From Elsinoe ampelina (lineage: Eukaryota): a stretch of 64,000 nt of DNA. Position numbers and translations under genes: made by a program. Shown here one piece after another: positions 24,420 through 64,000 of this stretch. Below the pieces are notes generated by a model. The model was not told where the DNA came from and did not search any database. It saw only the letters and a program-made list of their open reading frames with translations. The stretch lies in assembly GCA_010093995.1 (NCBI GenBank), contig ML992501.1:764227-828226 (forward strand), read 5' to 3'. Within the stretch, counting starts at the first letter, position 1, and each line of letters begins with the position of its first letter.

Positions 24420-24560
24420 TGTTGTAACTGGCAAATCGGATCGAGAGACGTGTGTTTCATTCAGTGAGTTACAATAACCGATTATCTACTATGTGTGTGC
24501 TGACTCATTAGTACCAGTTCTTTAGTACCAGAGAAGCTGTACTAGTCCTCTATTACAACA
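24420..24560 (-). repeat. Copia 3' LTR (141 bp)
   Basis: Direct repeat of 38398-38538 with 8 differences, all transitions. Confidence 0.95.
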
Positions 24561-24929
24561 CTCCCCCTCTAGTATAGGTTGTTAAAGCTAAAGAACTGCC
24601 TGTTACATATAAGTAAAGTAATTAGGTTATTACTTTATCTTATTATAATTACTTATAATTATTAGTGTTAGCTAATTATTAGTAAGGGTTTACTATTAGT
24701 CTAGCTTATAGTTGTTAATAACAATAGTAACTATTAACAATAGCTAGGCAGCTATTGTTCTATTGTTCTATATAAATAAACTAGCTTATAAATCTTAACA
24801 AGGGAGATATAAGTATCTAGCTAGCTCCTTTATAGTTTCTCCTTTCTTTATTATACTTTATAGTAGTAGCCTGTCCTTTTATACTCTACTTTTACCCTCT
24901 TACTATACTATATCGATAATACTTACATT

Positions 24930-25957
24930 ATAAGCGCTATAGTATAGCAATAGCTAGGCATTAGTAGTATTACTACTAGTACTAGTGCTCTAGGTAGTCT
25001 ACTAGGTAGTAGAGGTAGTAGTAAGAAGAAGAATTCTTTATTAAGGTTACCTAGTACTTCTAATATTAACTATAACACTGCTATAAGATTAATTACTCGT
25101 CTTAATACTCTTAGTAAGTAGCTATAAAGTATTAATAGCACAAGCTAATATTAATAGCCTAATTAACTTAGACTTTAACTTAGTAGTTAGTAGATATAAT
25201 TTAGAATACTCTTCTTAGGCTTAGGATAATTAGTTATTATAACTATACTAACTTATATCCTATCTAGAGGTCTATAGCAGTCTAGGCCTTTAGTACCTAT
25301 AGTGTATACCTAGTAGTTACTAATTCTATTCTAGTTAAGGATCTAACTAAGTAAGTTAACCTTACTAGATCTACTAACTACTCTACTACTTTAATAGCTT
25401 CTAGTGCTACTAGTAGAGTAGTCTACTATAGTACTAATCGCTATACTAAGTGTTAGAGATCTAACTCTAGTAATAATTAGAGTAAGAGTAGAAGTAGTAA
25501 GTTTAGTAAGTATATTACTTTACCTAGTTAGCTTAATAAGGCCTACACTTACTATACTTATAGTAACTAATATACTAGATGTTCCTTAGCTAATTACACT
25601 TTAACTCTAAGACCTGTTAGCTCTCCTAAGCCTATAAGGACCTCGAGTAGCTTAAGAGTTATTACCTAGCCTATTCTATATAGCCTAATATACCTACTAA
25701 TAGAGCTCCTAAGGTCTACCTCCTTTAGTAGTACTTTACCTTAGAGATTCTTACTAAGGGCCTATATGCTAGAGGCATTATTAGATATAGTTAACACTTT
25801 AATAACTTATACTAACTCTTACTACTTTATTATAGTCCCTATAAACTTTATAGATCCTACTAACCTAACTACTACTAAGGTTTATAACTTAGCTACTATA
25901 GTAATAAACTATATAGTAGAGCTTATAAGGATTATAGCTACTAGCTACCCTAGTTAG
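24930..25957 (+). pseudogene. RIP-mutated, intron-containing accessory gene antisense within the Copia (CxxC..CxxC protein)
   Basis: Lies between the end of pol (~26320) and the 3' LTR. Intron-like GTAAGT..GCTAAT..TAG at 25114-25157, with further CTAA(C/T)..TAG acceptors at 25267, 25578 and 25835. One exon contains tat-agt-gta-tac (CxxC after reverting G>A) and tat-act-aag-tgt. The last exon coincides with the 3' part of ORF 25766-25957. Exact exon joins not fully resolved. Confidence 0.55.
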
Positions 25958-28336
25958 CTTTCTCCTATTTATGCCTTTATACTAGGCCTAGTACTAATAA
26001 GGTATAGTAGGTCTAGATCTAATACTTCTATAAGGTCTACTAGTAGTAATAAGGGGAGAAGTTCTCCTTCTATAAGGAAGTAATTTAAGGTAGAGAATAG
26101 GTAGAAGTTATTAAAGATAATAATAGTATTAAGTAGTAGATATAGCTTAGGTATAAGTAGCTAGTAATAAGGTTATAATAGCTTTTCCTTTTTCTCTTTT
26201 TAGTTATAAAGTAATTTACTTTAACCTTTAGATAAATAAGATAGCTTAATAAGTAGTAGTAGCATAAATAATATACTTAAAATAACAATACATATAAAAT
26301 CTAAATAAGTATATAGTATAGATATACACTAAGTAATTAGCCTTTACTAATTAATTAAGAATCTTATTAGGAGACTTAGGCTTTATAAGTATATTAGCTA
26401 ATTACTAAGTTATATTAATATACTTAAGCTTAATTACTCTAAGTTTATACTACTCTCTATAGTAGTAATTCCTTAAATTAATATACTTAGATCTCTTTAA
26501 ATTAGTATAATCTCTTATAAGTTTAATAGCTAATTTATTATTAATAAAGACTATAGTTAGACTAAGGTAGATATTAGTAAGTAGTCTAAGTTTAATAATA
26601 AGATTTCTTAACTAGTTAATCTCCCTATAGGTCTTAGTAAGGGTAAGGTATTTAGCCTTAGTACTTAATAATACAATAATCTTCTATAGCCTTAACTTCT
26701 AGATAACTAGTGTACTAAGTATATAGATAATAGTACTAGATATAGATCTTATAGTTAATCTATCTCTAGTAAAGTCTAAGTTAGAGTAGGCCTTAATTAT
26801 ATTAACTAATAGTCTACTAGTCTTCTTAAAAGTTAAACCCTTTATAAGAGTCTTATTAATATATCTCTAGATTTGTTTAGCTATAACTATATAGGATATA
26901 GTTAGATTCTAAAGGAATCTAGCTAGGTAGTTAGTAGTATAGCTAATATTAGGCCTTATATTATTAGCTAGATACTATAGTTTACTAATAATTCTATTAA
27001 ATATCTTATAGTATTAAGCATTAACTTAGCTATTAGTTAGTTTATAGAGTTAATTAATAAAATACTTTATAGTTCTTACTTAGTAAAGATTATAACCTTT
27101 AAGCTTTTCCTTTAAGTAGTGTAATTACTTAATCTTAATTATGTCCTTAGTTCTATAAAGTTAAATACTAAGGAATAAGTTTAAGTTTATAACCTTTATT
27201 AGAAACTTAAGGTAGAGGTCTTTAACTAGCTTATTAGTATACTTCTACTTAGTAGCAATAATCCTAAAGTTATTAATATATATAAGAACTATATAGTACT
27301 TATTAATAAAGAGGTAAGTATTACTATAGGACTTAATAAACCTAAGTAATAGAAGTGCTTTAACTATAGAATTATACTAGAGGGCTATAGCTTACTTAAG
27401 CCTATATAGGCCCTTTATAAGAATAATAAGCTTATTCTACTTATTAGGAATTAGTATACCTTCTAGATAGGAGATGTAGTTTTTAATATTAATATCTAGT
27501 CTAAGGAATATAGTAATAGTATCTACTATTATAATAACCTAGTTATAGTAGAGAGTATATACTAGAATTACTCTTCTAGTTTTAGCTTTTAGTATTAGTA
27601 TAAAGGTTCTAACAAAGTTAATACCTTACCTTTAGGTAAAGCCTCTTATAGTCTAGCGAGCCTTATATCTTTTAACTTTACTATTAGTAAGTCTCTTAGT
27701 CTTAAAGACCTATTTGTCTATTATTAGCTTAATACCTCTTAGTGCTTATAATTTCTTAATAATTAGAAAGGTTTTAGAGTTAGTTAGAGCCTTCTACTCT
27801 ACCTCTATTATAGCTTACTAGTAATAACCTTTAGGAGAGAATAGTATATCTCTTACTATTTGTAGGTCTAGCTTAAAATTAACAGCTATAGATCCAATAA
27901 TCTTACTATTATTAAGTTTCTTATAATTAATCTAGCGATATATTCTAAGGGACCTTCTAATAGTTTCTTATAGTAAGAGAGATCTCTTCCTTTTACTAGT
28001 TAGAGGTTATATATTAAATAGTATAATAAGGAAGTTAATATCCTTATTCTATATATATATTAGTAGTTAATTAACATTAACTATAGGATTAAAAGTAAAG
28101 TATAGTTTACTAATAACTTTAGGTAGTAGTATTATAAGGTCTTTACTTTTATAGTTAGTATTATTAGGTTACTTAGTAGGTTACTCCCTCTATTTATAAA
28201 TAGGTTAGAGATCTATTTAGGAGCGCTAATATTAAGGATGCTCCCTCTGTTCTTTAATAGGGGTAGGTAATTGTTTAGGGGTTATAGAGTAGTTAGGGGT
28301 TAGCTATTTAGCCTAAGTAGTTTATAGGTTCTTATA

Positions 28337-28534
28337 TGTAAGAACTAACGTAGTAAGTATACTACGCTAGCTTACCCCGGAGATACTATTCTCTATAGAA
28401 GAATAAAGCACTCCTCGCCTATAGAATAGATAGAGTAGAGATTAGTCTTACGACAATCGAGGGTATACTAGTGTAATACCTATTCTACTCCGGTGTACTT
28501 GTCTTTCTAGCTCTAATATCCTATCTTTGTTATA
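28337..28534 (+). repeat. Gypsy-1 5' LTR (198 bp)
   Basis: Direct repeat of 35432-35629, differing by transitions. Confidence 0.93.
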
Positions 28535-31500
28535 ATTCTAATCTCTCTTATATCCTATTAGATAGAGCTATATAGATAAGATAGTACCCCGTACTTAGCG
28601 CTAGTAAAACGACTAACTACTACTAGAGTAGTACTAGTATAGATAACTCTCTAATAGCTTAGCTATTAGCGAGACATTTACTAAATTAGCTATAACTCTA
28701 GAGATAACTCCTATTAAAGATCGCTAGGCTAGGGAAGGCCTAGCGCTAAGACTACACTACGCTAATATAGCTCCTATAGGAAGTATAGCCGACACAGGAA
28801 ATAATACTATATACAAAGCACTTCTTACTTATATCGCTTAGCTCAAGAATACACTTAATAGTTACTCTCTAGTTATAGCACCAGTACTACGTAGTTGTTT
28901 TAACAACATATAACTCAACAACATCTACCTAATAAACCTACAAATCGTAAGAGAGTATATACTAAACTTATACTACCCCGAGACCTTAGAGTCTACTATT
29001 ATAGTAAGAGTTAAGGAATTTATACACACGTATAATAACGTCTTTAAGATAGCGCCAAACATCTACTATAAAGAAGTTACTTAGTACTATATAGCTACTA
29101 GCTACTTAAAAGGTTAGCTTAGCTACAATTAGGACTTATATACTAAGAGCGCTAGTATTATACCCTTATAGAGCCTAATATAGTTCTAGCTTTAGGACTA
29201 AGCCTAGAGTTCTAAAAACTATAGTAATAGCTACGTAGTAAAGTTCTTTACGTCGTACTAGTATAGAGAATAGTTAATTACTAATTTCTATATGTTCCTT
29301 AATAGTTATAAGTTCTATATTAAGATAGCGCTACTCCTAAATAACGCCTGCTATATATAGCTTATTACCTATACTACGCCGGAGCTATACTTAAAAGCAC
29401 TCTATTAGAGGAACCTACCCCTAATTAAGGTAGAACTCCTAGTACATCTATCCTGTTTAGAGTAGAACCTACTAGGCTACTTCGACCCTATATAGAGGCA
29501 GTATAAGTGTAACACTAAAGAGAAGACTAATACTTTTACTAAAAGGCCTCGCTATAACGAAGACTATAAGGGCTAAAAGGACTAGTAGAGTAGCGCTAAC
29601 GCTACCTCTATAGCCCCTTAACCTAGCGCTACTTACCCTTATAACATCTATAAGAGCCTAGACTATTAGGCGCTAAACTATCTCTAGAAGGACTCTTTAA
29701 AACGGATAGTGTCCTTACGTTTACTAATCCTAAGTAGCTCTAGCATAATATAGAATATATACTAAATTTGCGCTAATATTATAGTTAACCTACCTAAAGG
29801 CCCTATCGAAGAAGTAGCTCTAATAGATAGTAGCGCTAATAGTAACTTTATTAGCTAGTATTTTACTATACGCTATTATATTACTATTAACCCCCTAGTA
29901 GTATACTAAGTACGTAGCTTAGATAAATATAAATTAACTACCTATAGATATACTAAGTTAGCCTTAGCTATTAAGAATAGTAAAGGAATAATATAGGCGT
30001 TACGCTAGTAGTTTAAAAGCGTTAATATAACTAGTTATAATCTTATATTAGGCCTACTATAGCTATTGTCCTATAACTCTAAGATTTAGTAGAGCGCTAG
30101 TACGTAGAGGCATTATACTAGCGCTATATAGGTGTTAATTCTAGATGTACTCTTCTTCTCCTAGGAGCTAAATTAGCCTAACGCTTAGCTCTACTAAGTA
30201 TATATATGCCGGGACGAACTTAGCGCTCTAACTCTACTATACTAGCTTAATAACTACGTAGATGTTTTTAATAAGAGCGTAGTAACAGCGCTACTAGGTA
30301 ACAATTTTACTTACTCTATCGATATTAAAGAGAGAGAATAGCTACTCTAGGGACCTATCTACTCCCTTAGTAAGAAGAAGCTTTAAGTACTTCGAGAGTA
30401 TATAGATAATAGCTTAGTAACGAGTTAACTCTAGCATAGTACTAGCTCTATAGAGTCTTCTATTCTATTCGTTCCTAAGAAGAATAGTTCGCTATATCTA
30501 TATATTAACTATTATAGGCTAAATAATGTTACTATTAAGAACTATTACTTCTTACCTCTAATTACTAAGATACTTAATTACATCGAGGGCATATACTTAT
30601 TTAGTAAGCTAGACCTTATAGATACCTACTATAGAGTACATATCTAGCGTAGTAATAAATAGAAGATAGCGTTCCGCTATTGCTATAGCTACTTCGAATA
30701 TACTATTATACCTTTTAGCCTTACTAATGCCCTAGCTACGTTCTAGGCTTATATATATTAGTACTTAAGTAGCTTAGTAGACTACTACTATATTATGTAC
30801 CTAAATAACATTCTAATCTACGCTAGCGACAAGCAAAAGTATCGCTAGGCTATTAGAAGCGTACTAGACCACCTATATAAGAATAGCCTCTATACAAAAC
30901 TAAAGAAGTATATCTTTAAGGCAATATAGGTAGCATTTCTAAGCTATATCGTTAGTAGCAATAGCGTTACGATAGAGTAGCCCTAGGTGTAAGCTATTAC
31001 TAACTAGCCTACTTCTACTAGCCTAAAGGAGTTATAAACCTTTCTTGAATTTACTAATTTCTACTATTAATTTATTAAGAGCTTCTCCTATATAGCGCTA
31101 CTACTAACTATACTTATACGAGAGTTAGTCTAAGAGAAGTAAGTAGGCCTATTTCTATAGAGTAATAACGTAGCGTAGGCCTTTAATAGGCTTAAAGCTA
31201 CCTTTACGTAAGTGCCTATACTACGCTACTTTTTAGTAAGTAAGCCTCTCTAGCTCGAGACTAACGCTTTAGATTTTATACTCTCTAGAGTAATCTCCTA
31301 GTAAAACAAAGGCGATACCCCTACGTAATACTAGTACTCTATAGCGTTCTAGTCCCGGAAGCTATAAGGTATAGAACTAAACTATACTACCTACGATAAA
31401 GAGCTTCTTACTATTATAGAAGTAGCACGGTACTAGCGCTAGTACCTACTTAGCGCCGCTACCCCGATTAAAGTCCTCTTTAACTATAATAACCTTAGGT

Positions 31501-33901
31501 ATTTCCTAACTACTAAGAAGCTTTTATAGCGCTAGGCCTACTATGCCGAGGTACTAGCGTAGTTCGATATTGTTATCTAGTACTATAGTAGAAAGACTAA
31601 CCTAGCTAATAGCCTATTATATAGGCCTAACTACTATAAGTATAAAGAAGGTACATAGAAAGAGCGCTATATATTAGTTCCTCTCTTAGAGTAAGTATTA
31701 TAAATACGAAGTAAAGGAGTTACACCTATATCTATTATAGACAAGAAACCTAAGGCTAGTAAGGCCTAGGAAGATAGTAATAAAGCTAGTATAGCTTATA
31801 TGTCTTAAACTACTCCCTAACGTAACGCGCTTATACAATTCTAGTATGCCTCTAGAATAGCGCCTATAAGTTTACCTATTACCTTAGGAGTGCTATAGCT
31901 ATACTAAGAAGAGTTAGAGCCTCTAGAGTAAGAAGAGTAGTACCTAGAGAGTACTTATATAAACCTTTCTCTAAGCCTAACTAGTAATATCGAATTAAGA
32001 CAATATATGCCTACTCTAGTATTCTAGAACGTGCCGCTACTTGCCTAGGAAATAATAGAGAGCTAAGAGTATAAAGACGGCGTAATACCTATATAACTCC
32101 GGGACACCTCTAGTAGAAAGCCTACTATAATTTTAGACTAGAGTCGGCAGATTACGCGCCTCTATACTATATAAGTACTAGTAGATAAGACTATATACAC
32201 CTCTTCTACTTCTATGTTACTCTAGGACCTTGTCTATATAGTATAGTAAAGGGACGCTTTTACTTATAGTAAGAAATAGAAACTTCTAAAAGAGAGAACC
32301 TCGACTAGTAATAGTACTACCCCTAAGTAAAGCCTGTCTAGTAATAGCTTACTCCGGAACGGAAATAGAGTATATATTCTAGAAGAAACTACCTTAAGAG
32401 TAGAGCTTATATAGCACAATTATAATAACTCCTTAGAGAGTTACTTTAGCTATATAAAGACCTATCTTAATATAAGAAGGAAGTACTAGTAGCTAGGTAT
32501 ATCTATCGCTACGAAAGTGTATATCGAGCGCTACGATAGCTACTAAAGGTATAAGGTAATGTAGTATAAGCCTTATAGCCTCCTATAACTCTTGCTAATT
32601 CCGCCTATACTCGAGGCCTTATAACACTAGTTACTTAATTTTATTACTAGCTTACCCCTAGTAGAGCTCTAGCCTAGCGTCGTTATAGATGCAATTATTA
32701 TATATATCTATTACTTGTCTAAGTTTAGTATCTATACGCTAATGTTAACTAAGCTTAATACTAGAGACTTTACTAATCTATTTAAAACAGATATTATAAT
32801 ATAGTTCGGAACGCTAAAGACACTAGTCTTAGATAGAGAATCTATCTTTATAAGCAAGTTCTAGAGTGCGCTATACTAGCGCTAGAAGGCATAACATAAG
32901 CTTAGTACTAGTTTCTATCTATAGATAGATAGCTAAACTAAAAGGCAAAACTAGACGCTAGAGTAGTACCTATATTACTTTGTCGACTATTACTAGACGG
33001 ACTAGCTATACTAGGTTAAGTAGGTACAATTTATGTATAATAATACGTATTAAGCGTTACTATACGCTACGCTAGTATAGTTCTTATTTACGTAGGAGAT
33101 ACGCCTACCTAATAACATCGAGGCGCTAGCGCTACCTAGCTACGCGCTAGTATATAACTTATTAGTTAATAACTAAGTATAATCTATTACCGAAACGCGT
33201 ACAGAGCTTACTTAATACCTACGTAAAGCATAGAAAGACTAAGCGCTAGCCTATAATAGAGATTAATAAGTAAAAGTCTTCTATAATAGCAACGAGATTA
33301 TACTTAGCACTAAGAACCTTCGTAGCGCTAGACCTAGCTATAAGCTATTAGCTAAGTATATTAGCCTATTTACAATTATATAACGAATTAGTACGTAGGT
33401 ATATAAGCTACGCTTACTAGACAAAATAAAGCTAATCTATAACGTCTTTAACGTCGCGCTACTAGAGCTATATAAGCGTAGTAAGGGCATATACCTACTA
33501 CTCCTAGAGGTAGAAGGGCAGGAAGAATATATTATTAAATATATTCTTAGTAAGGGCTATACTAGCACCTCGAAGGCGCTATACTACCTAGTAAAGTAGT
33601 AGAGTTACTCTATAGAAGAAAGTATATAGAAGCTAGTAAAAAACCTTATAAACGCTAAGGAATTACTATATAAATACGAGGTAGCTTAGCGTAAGTATAG
33701 CGCTAGCTAAACACTCTAGACACACTTAGGATTAATAAGTTAAAGGCACAAATCTTAAAGTAAAGAGTACCTAGGTATAGCGCTAGGTTAACTCGAGGTA
33801 TTATTAGCTTATATAGTAAAAACGCTAGCGTAGCAAAAACTATAGAATTATACTAAAGCAAAGGGGGTATAGTATAGGCGTAGTGCCCTAGCCTCCCTAC
33901 C

Positions 33902-34772
33902 TTAACTATCTATATTATCTACCTTAGTCTTATCCTTATTATTCTCCTTAACACTATTAATATACCTAGTTAGCGCCCTTATAGCGTTGTTAATTACCTA
34001 CGTAGTAGCGGCTTACTTGTTCTTAGTAACTACCTATAAGAAAGTTAGTATAGCTTAGGCGTTATAGAGGCGCACTTCTAGACTTATATAACTAGCTAAA
34101 GCCTTAAGTATAAAGCTAGTATTACTAATTATACCTAGGCGTAGCGCCTTTACTAGCTACTTAGTATCGCCTTTAGAGGTAGAGAGCGTAGCGATAGTAC
34201 TATTATAGCGTAAAGAAGTTATACTATTACTATTACTTTTATTAACTACTTTACTCTTGCCCTTAGCGTTAGACTTACTCTATGTATATTTAGCGCTAGC
34301 CTTCTCGTATATATAGTTAGTATAGATAGTAATTCGGCGCTTTAGAAGAATAATATTCTTCTTAGAAGTAGTAGCATCGTTATAGATTAGTATATATATA
34401 GTAAAGTATTTGTCCTAGAGCTTCTTAGTAGTAACTTAATCCTTAGAGTCGAGCTTAGTAGGCTACTAAGGTTAGTATAAAGTAGGTGTAGTATAGGTAT
34501 AGAGTATACCTAGTAGTAGTGTTTATTACTATAACTATAACAATTATAGTAGGTAGCCTTAGCCTTAGTAATCTAGTAGAGAGAATTCTTAATAGAGAGT
34601 ATACTATCTTCGAGCTAGAGGTGCTTATCGATAGTAATAGCGTAGTGTAAGTATAGTATAGAATACTAGTCCTAGTTAGTAAAATCGCTCTTATAGGGGC
34701 TATAAAAGGTTAGCGCTAGCGTAGCGTAAGTACTATATATAATACTTACTCTTTAGGAACTTTAGGAGCTAT
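33902..34772 (-). pseudogene. RIP-mutated 4-exon antisense accessory gene in Gypsy-1 (~239 aa, Cys-cluster protein with acidic tail)
   Basis: Exons 34772-34750, 34699-34510, 34462-34088 and 34033-33902 total 720 nt with compatible phases (2,0,0). The three introns have GTAAGT / GTATAC / ATAAGT(<GTAAGT) donors, CTAAC branch points and TAG acceptors. All internal stops are TAG/TAA, revertible to CAG/TGG/CAA. Confidence 0.75.
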
Positions 34773-34912
34773 AGTTATTAAAGTACGTAAGTGTATAGAA
34801 GGTAAGCTAGTATAGAGCTAAGATAATAAAAAGGAAAAAAAAATTACTACGTAGGTACTATACTAGGTTAGTAAATAAATAACTAAATAGATAAGCCCGA
34901 TAGCTAAATCTA

Positions 34913-34954
34913 TAGTAGCGTAGGCTTAGTATATATACTAAGCCTACGCTACTA
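34913..34954. repeat. Perfect 42-bp palindrome
   Basis: tagtagcgtaggcttagtatatatactaagcctacgctacta equals its own reverse complement. Confidence 0.9.
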
Positions 34955-35431
34955 GCCTAAGGGCTAGTAAGGCCTAGTCTATACTATATAGTACCTAAAA
35001 TAGATTACTAGTATAGTATTAGACTTATATAAGTATAGAGCTAGCGTTAAGTAGGATACTTACGCGAAGAAAGTATTATAAAGGAGAAAAGAAGAAGAGA
35101 AGGAAAAGAGAAAAATATATATCTAGCTCTAAGCTAAGCCTAATCCGGAGAATAATAAGTAGTAGTATATAATAATAGGTAGATCCTTATATATAAAGAT
35201 AATAATATAAGAGCGCTATATTTTATATATAAAGAATTATACTATTATTACTATATCTAGTATACGAAGAATAGTATAGACTACTATAGGCGCGCTATAC
35301 GCGCGAAGAGTATACTATACCTAAGAGGCGCTAGCGAGACACTCTTTTCTAGTTTTCTCCTATACTAGGTTTTTTAAGTTTTATTAAGGCTTATAGGCGC
35401 GAGGGCGTGCCCCTTAAAGAGGAGAAATAAT

Positions 35432-35629
35432 TATAAGAACCGACGTAGTAAGTATACTATACTAGCTTACCCTAGAGATACTATTCTCTATAGAAGAATA
35501 AAGTACTTCTTACCTATAGAATAGATAGAGTAGAGATTAGTCTTACGACAATCGAGAGTATACTAGTATAACACCTGTTCTACTCTAGTATACTTGTCTT
35601 TCTAGCTCTAATATTCTACCTTTGTTATA
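35432..35629 (+). repeat. Gypsy-1 3' LTR (198 bp)
   Basis: Direct repeat of 28337-28534, followed by TSD TTATA. Confidence 0.93.
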
Positions 35630-38397
35630 TTATAACTAAAGAGTAGTTAATTGCCTTAGTAATAATTACTACTAAATGTCTACTTCCCCTAAAGCTATAA
35701 AGCCTTAGGTTGTTATACCTATAGGATATATAGTTATTAGATAGGTAGTATTACTTAATCTTTATAGACTATACCTTTATTAAAGGTAATATAAGGTAAT
35801 ATTAGAATCTTTCTCTTCTAGGCTTATTAAGTATAGTACTAATAGAGCATCTAGATAAGGTAGTTAGTTTTAGAGTTAGGCTATATTCTAATATGCTATC
35901 TAAGTAATGCTCTAGCTTAGAACTTATATAATTTAGAAATATATTAGTTATAGACATAGGCTCTATAGCTAAAGCGTCTAATATAAGTTAATAAGACTAG
36001 TCTATTATTATTAAGAAGATCTTTCTTTAGTTCTTATATAGGGATCTTCTTAGTTTTCGTATAAGTAATTCTATTACTAATATAGATTATAAACTCTACT
36101 AATAAGTACTAGAGTTTAAGGGGTGCTCTATAGTTAATAAAGATATATCTTATTCTAAGAATAATAGCTTTATTAGTAGCCTTAGACTCTCTATTTTAAT
36201 ATTAAGTATTAGGTGTAGAGATATTCTATCTCTAACTATTAAGTTAAATAGCTATTACTAGCTTATAGTTCTTAAATTTACTACCTCTATTAGAGATAAA
36301 GATAAATAATAGCTTATTATAGGCTATATAGTTCTTAGTGTAAATAGCCTTAATAGCTGCTAAGGTATTACTCTTTAGGAGAAGAATAGTAATAAACTTA
36401 TACTTACTTTTACTATATATTATAAAGAGAAGATACTTATAGCCTTTACTTAACTATAGCTTAATAGGACTAATAAGGTCTAGATAAAGCTTATCTAGTA
36501 AGTATTTTAGTAAATCCCTTAGCTCTCTTAATACTACTCTTTATACTTTTAATATAGTATATAGTTTATAGTAGCTAAGATCTAATATTTAAAGTTCTTC
36601 TAATCTAATAGCTTAACTTTTAGTAAGGGAGAGAATAGTGTTACTAATATAGCCTAACCTCTAGTACTATCTTTCTAATATTAGCTTTTAAGTAGTTATA
36701 ATAGCTAGATTTACTCTTATAGCCTATAGCTTCTATAGTTTTAGCCTTATAGGTAATTTCTTATAGTTCTAAGGCTTATAGACTTTAAAGTTCTTAAGCT
36801 ATTTAACTCTTTTAAAGTGTTTAATAAGGCTAACTTCCTTTCTATCCTTTATTAAGGATTTACTAACTATAAAGATACTAAGTTCCTCTTTATTCTAAAG
36901 ATTAAATATAAGAGTATTTAGTAATAATAGTAAGTATATATAATTATAAAGCTTAATAATTAACTTCTTACCTTTACTATTAGTTAGAGTAAGCCTAACT
37001 ATACTAACCTCTATATTAAGTAGTTTCTTTATACTAATAGCTTATTTAAATTTAAGAATACCTTTATATTCTTTAATTATTAAGAACTATAATCTGTCTT
37101 TAATAAAGTGCCTTAATATACTAGAGTTATAGATTACTCTATTTTAACTATATATTAATAATAATAATAATAATATAGATATAGCTACCTTAGTATAAAT
37201 TAATCTAATTATATTAATATTACTATTAGAGTACTTATCTAATTCTCCTACCTTAGTAGGTTCTCTAGATTCTTTAATAGTAGCTTAACTTTTAACTTTC
37301 TTAGTCCTTAACTTACTACCTCTACCTTTAGCTTTAGTGCCTTTATTATTTAACCTACCTTTGTTATTCCTCTTATTTTAATTCTTTAGTACTTTCTTAG
37401 AGTGCTACTTAAAATAATCTATATTAGAGTAGATATAATAAGTATACTAAGTATATTAATCCTTAATATAACTAGCTACTCTATAGATAGAGTTTAGATT
37501 AGTTCTTCTATTATATAGAGGCTTTTATATTCTAAAAGAGCCTATTATCTCTTTAAGACTCTTCTTATAGTTAAGGCTAGATCTCTAGCTCCTTAACTAT
37601 TTAGTAGTCTCTATTTCTATAATAAACATAGTCTTAATATAATATAGAGGGAGCTTAAACTTATCTAGTTTAGTACTAATAGTGCTTACTCTTTACTCTA
37701 TAGTAATAGTATATTAATAATAGTACTTTATAAAATCTTTATAGTACCTTTAGGTGTTATAACTTGTTATAACTACCTTATTAAGGTTATAGATAGCTAT
37801 ATATAGCTTATATAAAACAACAGGTTTAAATATAGCTTTAATAGTGTCTAGAAGTTCCTTTAAAGTCTTCTAAGTTATACTATAGTAAGGTCTAATAGAT
37901 TTATAAATCCTTATTATAATAATACTATAAGTAATTCTATTATTCTTATACTAGGTCTTATTTCTAACTTTATAGATTGTCTTAGTGCCTTTACTAGTAT
38001 TAGGGGCTAGTTCCTTAGGCTTTATAACTACTAGTATCTAGTTAATACTATAGATTATATATCTAAGTATATCCTTTTTAAGGAGGGCTACCTTAAGGGT
38101 TAATCTCTAAGTATTATAGTTGCTTTCTCTCTTAAGAATCTAAGTCTTAAGCATTTTTGCTAATCTAGACATAATAATAGTAATTAGCTAAAGGCCTATT
38201 AATTTAATTAATGTAATTAGCTTATTTAAGCTATTTAAGCTATTTAATTAAAGGGTTAATATAGGCTACTACAAGTGTTTGTCTTAATATAGCTAGTCTA
38301 GAATTTAGTGTAGGCAGCTTGTTAATCCTTTTTAATAATGACATACTTAATTTACTATAGCTTTAAGTGCTTTTAAAGAAGCGCCGGGCTTATAACC

Positions 38398-38538
38398 TGT
38401 TATAACTAGCAAATTGGATCGAGAGACGTGTGTTTCATTCAGTAAGTTACAATAACCGATTATCTACTGTGTGTGTGCTGACTCATCAGTACCAGTTCTT
38501 CAGTACCAGAGAAGCTGTACCAGTCCTCTATTACAACA
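38398..38538 (-). repeat. Copia 5' LTR (141 bp)
   Basis: Direct repeat of 24420-24560, followed by TSD GTGAT. Confidence 0.95.
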
Positions 38539-38755: not shown

Positions 38756-41700
38756 CTACCTGAGTGGACTCTTCCCCAGTCCGCCTGCCAGACCGACAAC
38801 CCTCTTCCCGGGCGTCCCTGGCGCGCTTGCCACCACCTGCGCCGGCGTCCCACTCCGCTCTTCCTCCCCCCTCTTCTGTTCTGCCTTCCATTGTGACGGG
38901 GCTTTGAATCCAACATCTCTCCCTCCGATCCAAATGTCATCGATAGTGGGCTCGACAATGCCCCTTTCATCAAGCTCCTTCCATTTCTCCCACAGTTTCA
39001 AGGCGGTCCTGGCATCTTCGACTGAGTCGTGGCCGTGTTCGCCTTCCTGAACCTCTTCGCGCAACAGGTACCATGCGAGAAAGCGCAGACTAAGCTTTCG
39101 TTGAGAGCGTACGCCGAGGGAGAAGAGCTCGATGGTGTCAATGACTTGCGCCTTCGGAACGTGAATGTTGATGGTGCGAAAGTCTTTGGCCAGACCGTGA
39201 CCAACGAAGACAACACCGAGATTCAAGAGCAGCCAAAGCTTTTTGTAGGCTGCTTTGAGCGAGACAAGATTGTGCTTGCTCACGCTGCGATCGAGGTCTC
39301 CAGGGGAGATGCCGGAGTAGGCTGTTAGATAGTCGACAACTGGTTCGTTGATGGCTATGTAGTCGTCAATGAATGGTAAACCGGTATCGCTGCCGGCACC
39401 TCGAAGCACAGAGACACGAGCAAGTCCGAGACGTGGCGGACGGATCGTTTCGCGTGTGCCGTCTGCCTTGAGGTCGATCTCCGCTTTTGAGAGTGCCACA
39501 AACTCAGCGTCGATCGCCATGGGCTGCATCGGCAACGGTGTCTCGACAGCGGGAGCCAATGGCCTCAGCTGATCCGTCGGAGGACTCTTGTGTGGACCTC
39601 GAGGCAAGTGATACAGCAATGTCGGGTCCAACGACGCCTTCCAGCTATCATCAATAACCTTGCTGGCGGACTTGACCTGGTATGCAAGTACAGACGGAAG
39701 CTTCCACGTCGCATCGAAGTGCAGCGCATCAGATGGCGAAATTTGTCGGACAAGGAAATCGTTGAAAAGATGCCAGGAATCGATGTCCTTAGGATTCCGA
39801 CAAGAAGGGGACACGTTGATACAGGAAACCAAGTGACTAGACTGGTTCTCCCCAGCGTGAATGTCGGCTACAAATCCAATGAGTTCATAGACCGTGATAT
39901 TATACACTCCTCTCTGAATGTGCAATCGAAGATCTTGTCCTTCGTAGATGTAGACCTGTCGATCACCATTGATGATGACGCCAATCTCTTGTGGCAGCCA
40001 GTTCGGAGAGGCCCAAAGCTGTCGTTGGTCGAGAGTATGAATGGCTGCATTGATCATCATGACCTTTGGTAATGCCTGAATCGACTTCTTGGTATTGAGC
40101 TGCTGGTATCGTTTGCATCGATCGCACCAGCCGCGACTTGATTCCTGCCGTTCGATACTGGCTTTGAGGATGTGAGAGAAAGTGTGCCTAAGCTGACGAG
40201 GATGATGCTTCGGCGACTTTGGTGGGTACACAAGATCATGGACGATCGTGTCACCAGGCTTGAGCATCTCGTTGCCGCAATGACCGCATCTGATGGCCAT
40301 GACAGCTGCCGTAGTAAGGGCATGCTCCAGTGCAAGAGGATAACCAGGGATTCTCTTATAGCTTTCCGAGAAGGCTCGTAGAAAGTACCTGTTCGCTGCC
40401 TGTATCATGACTGTCAGCGGATTGTTGTGGGCGTGATCTTCAAGCAGGCCAAGCGTAGCTGTTTCCGGCAGGCTGCTGTACACTTTTAAAAAGTTGCTGG
40501 CTTGACAGTTCATACCTCCGGCCTTCTCAAGCATGTCGGTCAAGAAGCCCATCTCGCACAGCAAGCAGGGTTCATATAGACATGATGTAGCCGTGTGGTG
40601 GAGAACAAAATTTCGCATGACTGGAATGAATCGTAGAAGCTGCAGAAGAGGGTTTGCGTAAGAATTGCTGATGTGTGTTTCCAAGCCGGAGTACTTGGTT
40701 TTGTTGAAGTATCTGGAAGTGTCGTCAGCGATACCAGTGTGGTATGATTGAATGAAACATACTCAAAATCAAAGTCGTCGACACCAAATTTACTATACTT
40801 GATCTCGACATTCTTGTAGATGACCGGTACATCACGCCTAGAGTTGCTCTCGAGATTCATGCCGGCAAGGAATTCCAGAGCGTCGCTTATTCGCCTTTCG
40901 CCATTATGTCGCACACCTTCTTCTTTGGCATCTCTTGCTTTCTCGCTCAAGAATTTGGGAGCCGCTAATGTGTCTTGCGCTCTCTGTACGGCACGAGTGT
41001 CCTCAACTTGGTATCGTCGAGTCTTCTGTGGCCATGGCGCATAGCCACCCATATCGGCCCGCTTCAGGGAAGCCACAATCTTGGGGTCAATCTTTGCAGG
41101 CGGTGCGCCAACTTCGTGAACAAGATGTGATGGCCAGGCGGAGAAGAGAGTGTCGCGGTAGTAAGGCATGCCAACCAAGTTCAGAGGGCTGTCATGGTCA
41201 GTACAGATGTCAGGATAGAGCACAGGGACTCACATCTCGGGCGACCAGTCGATCGGAGGTACAGGCTGGGCAGAATCCGCAAAGGCCGTTGGGTTGCTGT
41301 ATTCTGTGAATTGGACCTTGTTCGGTGAACCCCAGAGGTGTATGGCACATTGTGCATCTGCTATTGCAATAGCCTCTCCGGAAGGTGCAAGATCGAGAGT
41401 CAGTAGATGTGTATCATAGAGATTTGCATGCTTGACTTTTGCATTGTCGGGATTCATGATGTCGATGGCGTACATGAGTCCAGTCTGAGAAGCGACGATA
41501 CAGGTCGTTGACATTCGGGGGTGCATTCGTACAAAAGCTGCGCCAGGCGGGAATGGTACAGGTGGTAGAGGTGTCATGTTTTTGAGGTCAAAGACATTGG
41601 CGAGATGATCTAGCATGAAGCCGTGCTGCTGGCGCGGCGACCAACCACAAGTGACCAAGATCTCGGACCGTACGTCCATGTCATTGATCCATCCAGAGTG

Positions 41701-58535: not shown

Positions 58536-61500
58536 TTTTAACTACTCTTACTATAGCATAGTACATTACAAGGTTAATAAGTAACTCTTGCTCTAAGTTA
58601 CTATTAGCATCTTCGATCGCTAGTAAGCTAGAAAAGCTTACTATTAATAACATGTCTACTACTAGTTTAACCTCGGGTAAGTATAGAAGGTCTTTTAGTA
58701 TAGAGGAAGGACAGAGTAAGCCTAAGTTAGAAGTAGAACTCTTTTATAGGGACCGCGCCTACTTAAGGCGCTTCCTTGTTTAACTTAAAGCCTTTTTTGC
58801 TCTAGAGAGGAATAAGTACGCTAACAACGCAGTAAAGGTCCTCTATGCTAGGATACACCTTAAAGGCGCTACCTTCGGGTAGTTCGAGCCTTATATAAGT
58901 AGCTACCTAGATAGATAACTAGGCCTAGATATAAAGGCTATCTTTAAGAGCTTTAGTATCTTCTAGGCAAAGATTAAGTAAGTCTTTAATATATCTAACA
59001 AGGAACGTATCGCTATAATAAAGATCTAACAATTATAACAACGTAGGTCTATAGCCTAGTACTATTCCTAGTTCTAACAACTCGTAATGTACCTAGACTA
59101 GAACAATAGTACTAAACACTTAGTATTCTATTAAGGACTAAGTAACTTAGTTAAAGACTAAATAATACTTAAGCTGCCTAATAGCCTTTAGGAACTAGTA
59201 GACACTATAATTACTATTAATAACAGACTTTACAAACGACATATAGAACGTTATAGAGAATATAAGGTAAATACTAGATATACGTATTCCTCCCGAAACT
59301 ATAGAGACCCTATAGAACTTAATACTATACGTAAAGGCTGCCCCTTATAAGTATAAGGCTATAGCTATAGAGGAAAGTTCCTTAGTAGAAAAGAGAGAGA
59401 GAAGTACAGACGAGATAATCTATATTTTAAGTATAAAAGACCTAGGCATCGGGCTAGAGACTACTAATAAGGGGCGCTAGCTAATAGATTATATATAATA
59501 GTTACTAGGCTAGTAGAGAAAAAGGCTAACACTACTAAAAAAGACCTAACGACCTTTAGCGTAGGTAAGGAAATATAGAAGGGGTCTATAACAACTTAAG
59601 AGGTAATAGAATCCTCTCTAGATGTTATACTTAATATCTCTACGACTAATAGCGAATAACAAAGTTAATACGTAATACTATTATAGATAGTATATTATAA
59701 TAACTCTTATTATATTTACTTATTAGACAAGTAGGGATCTAGTTAGTTCCTATATAAGCTATCTAAGCGTAGGCAACTAACAAAATAGCTAGACTAGGGG
59801 CTTAACCTAGAAAGGCACTCTATAATTAGTAGTAACATTAACTAACCTTAGAAGGTAGTTAGTAACAATTACTAATATATAATTATTAAGATAAAGTATT
59901 AAGACACGAGTGCTATATAACAATATAGTAGCCTTACCTTTAGCCCTTATAGCGAACTACAAGGAAAGGTATATTATATGTTGCTCTAGAAATATACAAA
60001 TTTAGATTATAAATAGTACTATACTATCTACTTATACGATGTACTTAGAGAAGACGCTATTAGTCTTAAATACACTATAGACTTCTCGGTAATCGAGATA
60101 GGTAGTACTATTCCCTATAGCTAAGTAAGAGAATATACTTAGTATAGCCTTACTAATTATAACTACGCTAGAGGTAGTAGCAATAAAGAGGAATATAACA
60201 AAGAATACACTAAACAACTATAATATAATAACATAGATAAGGACTTATCTAACAATAATAACGACGTACTACTATTAGGCGAATAACTTAAAGTATACCT
60301 TATAGGGATATAGAGGAATTATATAATAATATACACCTACTACTAGAATAGGATATAATAAGACAAATCTATATAACTTGTTTTTGTCTTTAATACTAAC
60401 GCCTAGCTATACCCGGAAGGAATAGTTATACCTATATAGGTGTATAACACTACTTAGTGTAACTAGTAGAGAATTATTAGACTTTATAGCTACTAAGGGA
60501 CTTAGGCGCTAGAAGTTTACCTTACTATATTAAATAGCGACAAAACACAACTTGTCTAATAGATATAGTACTAATAGTAGATACGTGTAGGAAGGGATTA
60601 GCTACTTATCTAAGGAGCTACAATGACAAAAAACTAGCTAGTTGTTACCTAATAAGGTAAGACAATAATACTAGCTAAAGCCTTAATATAATAAAGATCT
60701 ACATGTTAAATTACTTTATACTAGAAGTCTAGATATAAGAAAACAAGGTAAGAGCAATAATAGATTTAGGAGCTAACTATAGCTACGTCTCTATAATAAT
60801 TACTAATTAGCTTAAACCTTATTAACATTAGAAGGAGTTACCTTACCTACTTACTATAGCGGATAAAACCTTTATAGGGAAGAATAGAAAAGTTACTTAG
60901 AAACTACGAAACGTTATAATCTAAATCGAAATATATACGGAAAAACAATTAATTGATATAGTTAATATATAGTACAATATAGTACTTAGTATAGACTAGC
61001 TATAATAACATAACCTAGACGTAGACTAGATTAAAGAAACACTCGAATTTTCTAAGTGTAATTATAGAATATAGAGAGTATAATTAGCTCCGCGGATACT
61101 AACTATAAGGACAGTATAAGTACGACTAATAGTTAGAGCTATTACTAGCGTAAGTAATTAAGCACTTCCGCTAGAATATAAAGACTTTAAGGACTTATTT
61201 AAAGAAAGAGAAGGTATCGTAGCCTTACTCTAATATAAACTATAGAATTACGAAATACCTTTTAAAGAGAGTAAATCCCTAATATACTATTAAGGTCTTA
61301 TACTACTATCGAAACAAGAGAAGAATATCCTTAAGAACTATATCGATAAGTACTTACTTAAAGGATTTATACAACTATTAAAATTACCTATTACACACGA
61401 AGTGCTTTTTACACCAAAAAAGGATAGAACATTATAAATATATATTAATTACTAGAAACTTAATACACTTACTAGGAAGAATTACTATTCCCTACTAAGG

Positions 61501-64000
61501 ATTAACAAACTTTAAGACTAACTACTTAGAGCTAAATAGTTTACTGTAGTTAATATTAGAGACGTCTATTATTAAGTATAAATAAAGGAGAGTAAGGAGT
61601 AGAAGACGGCTTTTAGGATATAATAGAGTCTATATAAGTACCTCGTTATGCCCTTTAGGTTAACTAATACTCCTATAACCTTCTAAGAGTTAATTAATAA
61701 CACTCTATAAGAATACCTTAACAATTTTATCTTAGTATATTTAGATAATATTATTATCTTCTTAAAGACGTATAATAAACATATAGGACATGTTTATAAA
61801 GTGCTATAGAAACTAAAAGAAAAAGACCTACTAGTAAAACTCTCTAAGTATAAGTTCTATAAATACAAGATATAATTTCTAGACTATATTATATCTACTA
61901 ATAGTATTAGACCTAATCTAAAGAAGATCGAGTTAGTAAACGACTAGCTAGAACCTATAATAGTTAAGGAGGTTTAAGCGCTACTAGAGTTCTTTAACTA
62001 CTACTATAAGTTTATTAAGGGATTCTCTAAGGTAGCTACGCTAATATCTAACCTTACGAAAAGGGAAACTAGCTTTGTCTTTAACGAGAGATATAGGTAG
62101 GCCTTTAAGGAGCTAAAGCTTAGACTTATAATAGTACCTGTCTTAGTACTCTTCGACCTAGACTAATAAGCACTACTAGAAACAGATACTTTAGACTTTG
62201 TAATAGAAGTGTGTCTAGCGTAGAGGGACGCGGAAGAATAACGCTACCTAATTATATATTACTTACAAAAAATGACCGGACCTAAACTTAACTACGACAT
62301 ATATAATAAGGAATTACTTACGATTATAGAAGTATTCCGCAAGTAGAGAGTATACCTAGAAGAAATAACCTTACCTATATAAGTCTATATAGACTATAAG
62401 AACCTACTATATTAGATAATAACTAAAGTTCTTAATAGACAACAGGTCCGATAGTTAGAAACACTTATAAGCTATAACTTCTAGATCTACTATATTAAGG
62501 GATTAGAGAATAGCGGAGTAGATGCTCTTAGCCGCTAGCTAGATTACTTAAAAAACATAACAATAATAGAGGCCTCTATACTAAAGTAGTAGGATAGCGC
62601 TCTAGTCTATAAGTACCTAAAGGTAAAGTAGTTATATAGCCTTACCTAGGAGCTTACGTAAGAACAGAAGAAAGAAGTTATTTAAATACACTATAATAAC
62701 CTAATAGCGGGACATAGTAGGATCGATAAGACTATTAAACTTATTATATAAAACTACCTCTAGAAAGAACTCCGAAACGATATTAAGACGTATATTACTG
62801 CCTACGATATATGCTATAAGTCTAAGCACTCTCGACATAGACTATATAGCCTACTATAACCCTTACTACTACCGGACAAACTATAGTAATTAGTTATAAT
62901 AGACTTTATAGGACCTCTACTGCTATTAGAAGAACCTCTTATAGGTGTAAAGTATAATAGTATTCTAGTTCTAGTAGATAGGTTTACGAAGTATTACTAC
63001 TTTATACTATATAAGATAATAGTAACTACTAAGGATATAGCCTTTACCTTCCTCTAAATAATTGTTTTATAACATAGAGTACTACGAGACTTAATAACTA
63101 ATAGGGATAAGCTATTTACGTTACAATTCTAGTAATTATTTATAGACCTACTAGGAGTTAAATATAAGCTATTAACCTCCTTTTACCTATAAACGGATAG
63201 ACAAACTAAACGGGCAAATTAAGTACTAGAGTAGTATCTATAATGCTATCTAAACTATAAGTAAGACTTATAGGCGACGCTATTACCGCTTACGGAGCTC
63301 GCTATTAACAATAGAAAGTTAGTAAATAGAATTTTACTATTCTACGTAAACTATAGGATATATCTAGATCTACACTATAACATACTTAGAATTAAGCTAG
63401 TATCTAAGGATACTAACACACTAGTAGCTAACATTAAGAAACTACACGACTAGCTATACTATAATATAGCATTTATATTACAAAGAATAGTAGAGTTTAC
63501 TAACCAGAAGAGAATTACAGGACTAATTCTATAGGAGAGAGAGAAAGTTTACCTCCTTAGTAAAAACATTAAAACGAAACAACCAAGTAAGAAACTTAAC
63601 TATACTAAACTAGGACCCTTTAAGATCCTAGAAAAGAAAAACAAGAACGTATATAAACTAGAACTACTAAGATATATAAGGATTTATCTAGTCTTTTATA
63701 TATTACTACTAGAGAAAGTACTATAGAATACTATACCTAGACTTATTAAACTAGATAAAGAAACATAGGAGCTACGGTATAAGATAGAAAGAGTTTTACG
63801 TTATAAACTTATAAAAGGAAAACGCTACTATCTTATCTACTAGAAAGGACATTAGTATAGTAAGGCAATATAGGAACTAGAGGAACACTTTACCTTATAA
63901 GTAATCCTAGAGTATTAAACTAAAAACCTATCCTAAGTAAACTAACTAGGTAGACCTAACGCTACTAATACTAAACAAAAATAAGAACGCCTAAGGAAGA
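58073..64000 (+). mobile_element. Second Ty3/Gypsy chromovirus-type element inserted into Copia-2, runs off the window
   Basis: 5' LTR, gag with CCHC knuckle (cta-tat-ttt-aag-tat..cat..gac-tac ~59420), protease AMIDSGA-like (~60753), RT YLDDII-like (~61738), RNase H, integrase and chromodomain (~63780-63900). Confidence 0.9.

Follow-up and report, generated by a model that had tools for sequence, protein, structure and literature searches.

The 64,000-nucleotide window examined here (Elsinoe ampelina, GenBank assembly GCA_010093995.1, contig ML992501.1, positions 764,227 to 828,226 of the forward strand) contains a complete Ty3/Gypsy retrotransposon that has been altered by repeat-induced point mutation (RIP), and between the end of its pol gene and its 3' long terminal repeat (LTR) a coding-like block runs antisense to gag and pol at approximately 33885-34710. 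The presence of this block inside a full element was confirmed. We read it as the remnant of an ancestral, spliced antisense gene with a Cys-rich head, carried by a dead chromovirus-type element and presumably encoding a DNA-binding regulator, and we assign this reading as a whole a probability of roughly 65%. Its parts differ in strength. A real ancestral antisense gene is highly probable, and at least one true intron is probable; a zinc-binding Cys head, predicted from codon content and a relative's exon, is favoured somewhat less strongly; and a role as a DNA-binding transcription regulator, drawn from analogy, is tentative. An initial annotation of the window had proposed a three-intron antisense gene for a Cys-cluster protein at this place, and its interpretation as a whole is partly supported.

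The element occupies 28337-35629 and is nested in a RIPed Ty1/Copia element. Its parts are:

28332-28336, no strand: target site duplication (TSD) TTATA, 5' copy, by direct reading; the identical five bases stand at 35630-35634
28337-28534, + strand: 5' LTR, 198 bp, beginning TG, from the direct repeat and alignment
28600-29699, + strand: RIPed gag-like region, from the codon-model signal on the + strand (0/500 shuffles)
29700-33700, + strand: pol, with reverse transcriptase (RT), RNase H, integrase SH3 and a chromodomain-like end in a single frame with 112 stops, from Pfam and tblastn of chromovirus proteins
35416-35431, + strand: polypurine tract AAAGAGGAGAAATAAT adjoining the 3' LTR, by direct reading
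35432-35629, + strand: 3' LTR, 198 bp, beginning TA (from TG), from the direct repeat and alignment
35630-35634, no strand: TSD TTATA, 3' copy, by direct reading

The two LTRs are 90% identical and both finish ..GTTATA, and the LTR pair with its TSD, together with RT, RNase H and then integrase on one strand, place the element in Ty3/Gypsy. With stops read as X, the pol frame matched the Pfam models RT_RNaseH_2 (E 1.6e-15), RT_RNaseH (7.9e-15) and SH3_Tf2-1 (1.2e-9), and RVT_1 at E 1.9e-6 with 28.2 bits, slightly below the cut-off of 29.6. Its best protein is P0004 (E 5.5e-137), and the matching proteins are chromodomain-bearing Ty3/Gypsy polyproteins. The chromodomain model PF00385 gave no match in the RIPed read-through; the nearest proteins carry PF00385, and residues 1233-1366 of P0017 align to 33279-33680. 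A Pfam search of the gag-like region was without match.

Across the window, GC-rich blocks (50-64% GC) alternate with AT-rich blocks at approximately 24.5-38.5 kb and 56-64 kb, and the composition of the AT blocks is RIP-like (TpA 0.18-0.22 per base, CpA plus TpG 0.005-0.04). The accessory block has the same character (TA 0.217 per nt, CA plus TG 0.015 per nt), and copies of the element differ by transitions (C>T at 153 places, G>A at 137, T>C at 119 and A>G at 110) with transversions at only 8 places. Contig pieces from a DNA sequencing run, 3604 in number and 80-100% alike, were placed on 28600-35430 and covered 30 of 30 bins, although the depth of such contigs is not copy number and the assembly may derive from this very run. 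Pieces also fall inside the accessory block (e.g. 34479-34622 and 34643-34867). Insertions or deletions among the other copies occur only at 33891-33896, as three single-base insertions in 2-3 contigs each, just beyond the proposed antisense stop. With every bin covered and nearly all differences being transitions, the pieces are read as a multi-copy family RIPed copy by copy, of which the 1.7-kb spacer between pol and the 3' LTR appears to be a constant part.

The antisense gene model consists of the following features, in which L009 is an intact metagenomic relative described below:

34750-34772, - strand: candidate exon 1, ATA (possibly from ATG) then APKVPK, resting on sequence only and too short for any statistic
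34700-34749, - strand: candidate intron 1, 50 nt, GTAAGT..GCTAAC..TATAG, from its motifs; the L009 N-terminus is without an intron
34510-34699, - strand: exon 2, 63 codons, Tyr/Cys/His-rich, with a putative Cys cluster; period-3 chi2 30.3 and a RIP-aware match to L009
34466-34509, - strand: intron 2, 44 nt, phase 0, GTATAC..TACTAAC..TTAG, from the phase change in periodicity and a match to L009 intron 1
34076-34465, - strand: exon 3, 130 codons; chi2 43.4, host-RIP model 0.184 per codon, strand bits +10.9 to +20.9
34034-34075, - strand: candidate intron 3, 42 nt, GTGCGC..TACTAAC..TATAG, in frame and not required, from its motifs; two in-frame stops if read through
33902-34033, - strand: exon 4, 43 codons plus TAA, with a K/N/D-rich end; chi2 36.0, best of six frames in all codon models

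The coordinates first proposed for a 240-codon frame were borne out, with the length now 244 codons and with 12 in-frame stops (10 TAG and 2 TAA) among the 236 codons of exons 2-4. All 12 are RIP-reversible, as is nearly every stop in this DNA; the copy is dead and unable to make the protein any more. Stop-codon density was rejected as a coding test, being uninformative in RIPed DNA: at 7.6-9% in the true pol frame versus approximately 10-11% in other frames it does not separate even these, and the openness of a frame therefore says little.

Periodicity was assessed against dinucleotide-preserving shuffles. The period-3 chi2 values of exons 2, 3 and 4 compare with 6.5-7.2 +/- 4.1-4.6 in shuffled sequence (0/500 for each exon), while the flanks at 34780-35430 and 33700-33900 reach 2.4 and 3.8 and the medians of pol windows are 6.8-13. 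When all AT blocks were scanned, the accessory block ranked with the strongest peaks, and no tandem array that would explain the periodicity was found in it. In the proposed frames, purines are abundant at position 1 (A 0.38-0.60) and T at position 3 (0.44-0.48), which is the expected outcome of RIP on codons starting with G and ending with C. The phase of the signal switches between approximately 34530 and 34470. A phase hidden Markov model (HMM) trained on any one exon recovers the others, with phase 0 at 34710-34503 and phase 1 from 34502/34461 to 33885, and its borders fall at most approximately 20 bases from the proposed exon 2 start, intron 2 and stop.

Codon models were then considered. 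Those based on transposable elements (TEs) were trained on two pol genes, one of which, from elsewhere in the window, served as an independent training and control set:

60745-63978, + strand: second, different RIPed Ty3/Gypsy pol in one + frame, running off the window end, 35% identical to P0008 over 1137 aa

Under cross-validation, these models placed the true frame best of six in 15/19 and 15/15 windows of 130 codons. On the minus strand, they give the proposed frame the highest score in each of the three exons, and the pooled TE model is significant in the shuffle test (0/300 and 4/300). A host-derived model, built from 21 host open reading frames (ORFs) only and simulated RIP, found the true pol frame in 17/19 and 15/15 windows. 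It scored exons 2, 3 and 4 at 0.098, 0.184 and 0.275 per codon versus a pol true-frame mean of 0.05, and the best minus-strand window reached 0.198 per codon versus 0.031 +/- 0.021 in shuffles (0/500); the stretch 34780-35430 was null. As periodicity is strand-symmetric, the score of the true frame minus that of its mirror frame was calibrated as a strand test, using control stretches of 236 codons; its sign was positive in all windows of pol A (19), pol B (15) and gag (3), with the host model and one cross-trained model each. The block yielded +12.3, +27.5, +38.3 and +31.5 bits under four codon models, all favouring the minus strand. Periodicity, codon models and strand bits thus uphold the initial claim of an antisense coding block between the chromodomain-like end of pol and the 3' LTR.

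Counterparts of the gene were sought in related elements. Twelve of the best pol matches were aligned, and the alignment was used to fetch 76 chromovirus loci from metagenomes, none of which exceeds approximately 30% identity with the RIPed pol. Ranked by how closely their pol resembles that of the window, L008 is third and L009 ninth of the 76. The L009 antisense gene runs on the minus strand from 6844 to 5902 and has three introns of 44, 47 and 51 nt, with donors GTAGGT, GTATGT and GTACGT, branch sites ACTGAC, ACTGAC and ACTAAT, and an AG at the end of each. Its joined frame is open for 266 codons and encodes a Cys exon ending ..GGETYYKCESCTGATNCLE (..TYYKCESCTGATNCLE at the junction), a basic stretch, helical parts and an acidic end. 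In L008, the antisense gene has a Cys exon ending ..SPCDRCMRTKSGSCVE (..CDRCMRTKSGSCVE) directly before the donor GTGAGC, a second intron and the C-terminus ..DTDPTPDDDEA. The first Cys-rich exon of both genes ends C-x-E followed by GT. The architecture that the initial annotation had described, with a Cys-rich exon, introns and an acidic end, therefore recurs in intact antisense genes with canonical introns. This shared architecture is strong evidence that the gene model is of a real kind.

Among the relatives, 39 loci contain the pol end and at least 400 bases beyond. Three of the 39 (L008, L009 and L018) carry, antisense within the spacer, a signature in which C-x2-C-x4-8-C-x1-2 is succeeded by a phase-0 donor; neither the sense strand nor 161 kb of pol gave a single instance of it. 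The window carries the signature as C53-x2-Y56-x4/5-Y61/Y62, then TAG and GTATAC, if Tyr stands for former Cys; its exon 2 ends ..KATYYNCYSYSNKHYY (TAG) directly before GTATAC. Intron 2 of the window and intron 1 of L009 are alike in phase (0) and length (44 nt) and lie at most one codon apart, after the last Cys, and L008 and L018 also have donors at the corresponding point after the Cys block.

The sequences were compared with a RIP-aware score in which each TpA may represent CpA, TpG or TpA. The best local alignment of the window gene with the L009 protein places exon 2 codons 15-62 on residues 45-96, with Y16 and Y19 on the first C-x2-C and TYYNCYSY on TYYKCESC. Exon 2 scored 39.7 against the L009 Cys exon versus 23.9 +/- 3.9 for shuffled targets (0/400), a score reached by 1 of 700 windows of RIPed decoy DNA and by 0 of 44 decoys equally rich in Tyr, Cys and His codons. 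Against L008 and the L033 head, 11/400 and 18/400 shuffles did as well; scores against L018 (86/400) and the L038 head (L038a) were not significant. Allowing for five targets and a choice of L009 made partly by eye, the similarity of exon 2 to the L009 Cys exon is moderate evidence for common descent.

The composition of exon 2 is consistent with such a head. It holds 11 TAY, 1 TGY and 3 CAY codons, or 15 of 63 (24%), versus 6.9% in exon 3, 2.3% in exon 4 and approximately 10% in pol frames, and the one Cys codon and three His codons that survive all fall in the proposed frame. This excess and the in-frame survivors make it likely that exon 2 encoded a Cys/His-rich head. The single surviving TGT had been noted initially, and reading the codons bears this out. 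The pattern then reconstructed, C-x2-C-x20-C-x7-C-x2-C-x7-C, is present as Tyr/Cys in the form Y16-x2-Y19-x21-Y41-x8-Y50-x2-C53-x7-Y61, with two of the loops off by one.

Unspliced antisense ORFs were also found in other relatives. Of the 39 loci, 23 have an antisense ORF of at least 100 aa and 18 a sense one, an uncontrolled count that is weak alone; four antisense ORF families recur between loci. Two of these families are represented by:

L038:4586-5119, L034:1311-1829, L027:5608-6126 and L053:5377-5952, - strand: unspliced antisense ORFs directly after pol in metagenomic chromoviruses, 173-192 aa
L033:3819-4400 and L040:7209-7670, - strand: in L033 a Cys-rich head precedes a basic stretch, and the tail is long and acidic; the L040 ORF is without the head

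The third comprises L044, L045 and L047, whose antisense ORFs follow pol and are, in the L044 type, Glu/Arg/Lys-rich and coiled-coil-like; in the fourth, L036/L067, the L036 ORF is split by approximately 680 bases in L067. The L038 family has six invariant Cys residues spaced C-x2-C-x6-C-x8/9-C-x2-C-x6-C, after which come a long helix and a stretch of acidic residues, and the ..GSS end is conserved; L053 is a member at 28% identity. Zn2Cys6 domains follow the spacing rule C-x2-C-x6-C-x5-12-C-x2-C-x6-8-C, and the L038 family shows this spacing. Values of dN/dS were 0.045-0.069 among L038, L034 and L027 and 0.137 for L033/L040, indicating that these antisense ORFs are under purifying selection where pairs allow the test. 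A structural model of the L038 family was of low confidence (pLDDT 59), and 17 of the 20 Foldseek matches listed for it name Zn2Cys6 DNA-binding domains (PPR1, Pho7, Put3, Gal4, Hap1, Leu3 and AlcR), with a best E of 0.15, probabilities up to 0.96 and none at E 0.001. The Pfam Zn_clus model did not match the L038, L027, L033, L008, L009 or L018 ORFs at E up to 10, and a profile of the L038 family searched against PDB sequences found eS27 as its best match (E 0.14). A single-sequence model of the L009 Cys exon (pLDDT 42.8) was unusable. Seven of the antisense proteins were found by exact look-up in clusters drawn only from metagenome or run assemblies, where they are unnamed or called 'hypothetical protein'; three further ones were absent from the protein collection searched in this way.

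A number of results weigh against the reading of the block as a spliced antisense gene with a Cys head. Of 906 centres placed at random in RIPed DNA of the window, 344 (38%) offer splice motifs of the required length class (GT..branch..AG), so that such motifs, which the initial annotation had offered as evidence, prove nothing alone; on that annotation's own grounds, frame and motifs, the case is not above chance. The codon model trained only on the second Gypsy pol was not significant against shuffles (60/300 and 215/300), and for exon 2 alone the mirror + frame scores equal or better, with strand bits neutral to slightly negative. The Cys residues are inferred from Tyr codons, and which Tyr was once Cys is not visible in this copy; the three surviving His codons stand where canonical Zn2Cys6 spacing needs Cys. 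L009 was chosen partly after its motif had been noticed by eye, though its ORF was already in the target set. RIP-aware alignment of the window gene to whole antisense ORFs was not significant (L038a 13/60, L033a 7/60 and L053a 19/60 shuffled targets; best z 2.3 among the ORFs scored), as it was for the whole spliced L009 protein (25/150) and for C-terminal parts (134/150), giving no significant whole-protein similarity to any relative. Pfam searches of the six spacer frames, with stops read as X, gave no match, Zn_clus (PF00172) included, and PDB sequence searches gave nothing below E 0.3. There was no credible match among 1.84 billion representative proteins; the sole match for P0001 in that set (E 1e-4) was a repeat protein matched eight times over 36-42 residues, which was judged to be chance and rejected. 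A word-indexed protein search (P0002) and the L038-family HMM run against the window also gave no match, and tblastn of the six spacer frames against the 76 loci gave nothing below E 2.5. Transcript support was not found, the three runs guessed to be RNA covering only a 36-base partial piece at 35074-35109, which is uninformative on expression. Finally, several related chromoviruses, with spacers of 0-134 nt, lack the room for such a gene, and L004, L007, L025, L043 and L048 have only 0-371 bases between pol and LTR, which makes antisense cargo optional within the group.

Four other explanations were weighed. The one that survives best, which we nevertheless regard as unlikely, is that the block is a piece of a host gene transduced in antisense by an ancestor of the family and without a role, the change of frame being a host intron or a frameshift. 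The periodicity and host-model scores are indeed host-gene-like and far above pol (chi2 43 versus a pol median of 7-13), and host windows subjected to simulated RIP have a median chi2 of 19 with a 95th percentile of 48 and in-frame scores of 0.05 on average. Transduction is also given as one possible origin of the plant regions between pol and the 3' LTR in the portion of PMC11963269 consulted. No host protein was matched, however, either in the 1.84 billion representatives or in the word index, and the match to an ordinary host gene that the initial annotation had said would count against it did not appear. The relatives, moreover, come from unrelated samples, have the same layout and place and are under purifying selection where pairs are testable, and the Cys exon resembles the element-borne gene of L009.

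Slightly less probable is a real antisense gene that was never spliced, in which the phase change near 34500 would be a frameshift fixed in the master copy or the border of two ORFs, and the introns chance motifs. The 38% rate of suitable motifs at random RIPed sites fits this explanation, as do introns 1 and 3, which the frame does not need, and the non-consensus donors GTATAC and GTGCGC. Other copies, on the other hand, have no insertion or deletion at this place, and at the matching point L009 carries an intron that is canonical, 44 nt long and in phase 0, with donors there in L008 and L018 too. The three introns proposed initially have the motifs and coordinates described, and the second is backed by the phase change and by L009, whereas the first and third are not demanded by the frame.

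That the block is no gene at all, only a periodic non-coding stretch or a chance pattern, is improbable: other RIPed stretches do have period-3 peaks without codon-model support (e.g. 24920-25130 and 25340-25610), but in this block the frames and borders indicated by periodicity, by three codon models, by the phase HMM and by the domain of a relative coincide, and there is no tandem array. Least probable of all is coding on the + strand, as a third, env-like or other sense ORF after pol, which the strand symmetry of R-N-Y periodicity and the mirror + frame of exon 2 (0.123-0.164 versus 0.098-0.099) would allow, but which is opposed by the summed strand bits of four models, whose control sign was never wrong at this length, by a Leu/Ser/Ile-rich, low-complexity + reading and by the antisense orientation of the conserved spliced reading in L008 and L009.

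Under the preferred reading of a spliced antisense gene, the element in the window would be a dead, RIP-mutated copy of a chromovirus-type Ty3/Gypsy that formerly carried this gene. The ancestral gene would have had approximately 240-250 codons and at least one short intron (44 nt, phase 0) after its Cys-rich first coding block. Beyond this would have come a hydrophilic, probably helical portion of greater length and a tail that was acidic until RIP altered it. Introns lying opposite to the genomic RNA strand are not removed from that RNA and so pass through reverse transcription; being oriented away from the genomic RNA, those of the antisense gene would survive. The gene would have had its own antisense, spliced mRNA, starting in the approximately 650 bp between gene and 3' LTR, where the following features stand:

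34773-35415, - strand: non-coding stretch upstream of the gene and putative promoter, with no periodicity (chi2 2.4) and no codon signal
34913-34954, no strand: perfect palindrome, 42 bp (21+21, no spacer), approximately 140 bases upstream of the proposed start, from sequence
approximately 35075-35115, - strand: CT-rich tract then TATAA; on the + strand a purine run, AAAGAAGA x4.4, from sequence

The promoter would lie within 34773-35415, in view of the missing coding signal, the CT tract with TATAA and the palindrome. The CT tract with TATAA is a possible core-promoter feature for the antisense gene; alternatively, it may be a second polypurine tract of the element. The palindrome is a possible regulatory site; its perfection is not itself odd, since saturating RIP preserves palindrome symmetry, and it gave a sub-threshold Rfam miRNA match (27.7 bits versus a gathering threshold of 94), Rfam being otherwise empty. 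The protein is predicted to bind zinc through its Cys block and might have worked in the nucleus as a regulator that binds specific DNA sequences, most likely activating the element's own promoter. The anti-silencing or drive role suggested by the initial annotation is likewise hypothetical. Acidic tails and metal-binding Cys heads are typical of fungal activators.

The surroundings of the Gypsy element include:

24420-38538, - strand (coding strand): RIPed Ty1/Copia enclosing the Gypsy element, Pfam RVT_2 at E 3.4e-17
24420-24560 and 38398-38538: Copia LTR-like direct repeats, 141 bp and 94% alike, at the borders of the AT block
38759-40762, - strand: host gene bordering the AT block, coding for PAN2 deadenylase subunit sequence (the C-terminal two thirds), 99% identical to an Elsinoe ampelina protein

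Beyond the Copia pol, the stretches 24920-25130 and 25340-25610 show strong period-3 (chi2 36-48 in 150-nt windows); their + strand reading, antisense to the Copia pol, is Ser/Thr/Gly-rich, and the codon models back no frame. These stretches may be a second antisense cargo, or just triplet-like low complexity.

Genes of this kind are already known. In fungi, the brtn gene of Boty (Zhao et al. 2011) lies antisense between pol and the 3' LTR and is described, in the parts of PMC7264820, PMC8365987, PMC4227169 and PMC5987419 that were available, as of unknown function; this is a precedent that the initial annotation had missed. Boty is a fungal Ty3/Gypsy chromodomain element whose additional gene, according to these partial texts, sits after pol and ahead of the 3' LTR in the orientation opposite to gag-pol; its hosts are Leotiomycetes rather than a Dothideomycete, and the likeness described here is one of layout. 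The window block has the brtn-type place and orientation, lying between the pol end at approximately 33700 and the 3' LTR start at 35432 and running opposite to gag-pol. In plants, as the initial annotation had noted, antisense ORFs (aORFs) stand between pol and the 3' LTR in Grande, RIRE2, Retand (with a TRP28 domain) and PvRetro13, as reported in the portions of PMC7264820 and PMC11963269 consulted; the title of a work referenced there reports a promoter of its own for the Grande aORF. The plant aORFs are similar in place and orientation; they occur in most copies of a family and have a predicted DNA binding and proposed regulatory role. They differ in belonging to non-chromovirus lineages with unrelated domains, and the word 'intron' is absent from the available texts of the same two sources, whereas the gene described here is modelled with short fungal-type introns. 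PMC11963269 also mentions, in the part consulted, antisense genes of HTLV.

Two further systems were compared. Gal4-type factors (PPR1, Gal4, Put3, Hap1, Leu3 and Pho7) have the layout that is predicted for the antisense protein, with a metal-binding Cys DNA-binding head, a middle part made of helices and an acidic tail. Exon 2 of the window, however, fits only the second half of the Zn2Cys6 rule (Y41-x8-Y50-x2-C53-x7-Y61), with Y16-x2-Y19 lying 21 residues before Y41, and the loops of the window gene and of L009/L008 are longer than in Zn2Cys6 (e.g. C-x2-C-x14-C-x22-C-x2-C-x5-C). By the spacing rule, the window gene, L009 and L008 are not members, and Pfam Zn_clus misses the antisense proteins. 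These are also small (170-270 aa) and presumably without the large middle homology region of the cellular Gal4-type factors. HBZ of HTLV-1 is an antisense-encoded, spliced transcription-factor gene of a complex retrovirus, a bZIP protein transcribed from the 3' LTR. It resembles the present case as an antisense, intron-bearing gene near the 3' end of a reverse-transcribing element that encodes a nuclear regulator, which is what the window gene is proposed to be, and differs in its animal retroviral host element, its bZIP domain and its transcription from the 3' LTR; no sequence relation is claimed.

With brtn and the plant aORFs in print, what is new here is an intron-bearing, Cys-head version of a known antisense cargo, represented by a dead copy in the window and by live counterparts from environmental DNA. 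The literature searched contained nothing on introns, a Cys6 zinc-cluster-like head or selection in such fungal cargo, the original brtn paper and a supplement figure of PMC8365987, both of which may bear on this, lying outside the search; Zn2Cys6, LTR retrotransposon and antisense were never found together in it.

A broader proposal, which we put forward as speculative and on balance doubtful, is that fungal chromoviruses widely carry their own transcription factors: small Cys6 zinc-cluster proteins in which the middle is helical and the tail acidic. Their genes would lie antisense in the spacer that separates pol from the 3' LTR and be under purifying selection, some of them with introns that no other orientation could preserve, and the proteins would act as transactivators or copy-number controllers. 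Diverged members of this one class would then be the window gene, L009, L008 and L018, together with the L038 and L033 families, which are unspliced. LTR retrotransposons are usually viewed as gag-pol machines. If a chromovirus branch carries an antisense, spliced DNA-binding regulator, these elements would control their own or host gene expression as complex retroviruses do, a regulatory layer so far undescribed for fungal retrotransposons. Intron-bearing antisense cargo would serve as a recognisable signature, one currently overlooked by gene finders and repeat annotators, and unnamed or 'hypothetical' antisense proteins would become a testable family. A gene of this kind can be recognised even in fully RIPed DNA, through periodicity and RIP-aware models, in regions of plant-pathogen genomes that are normally dismissed.

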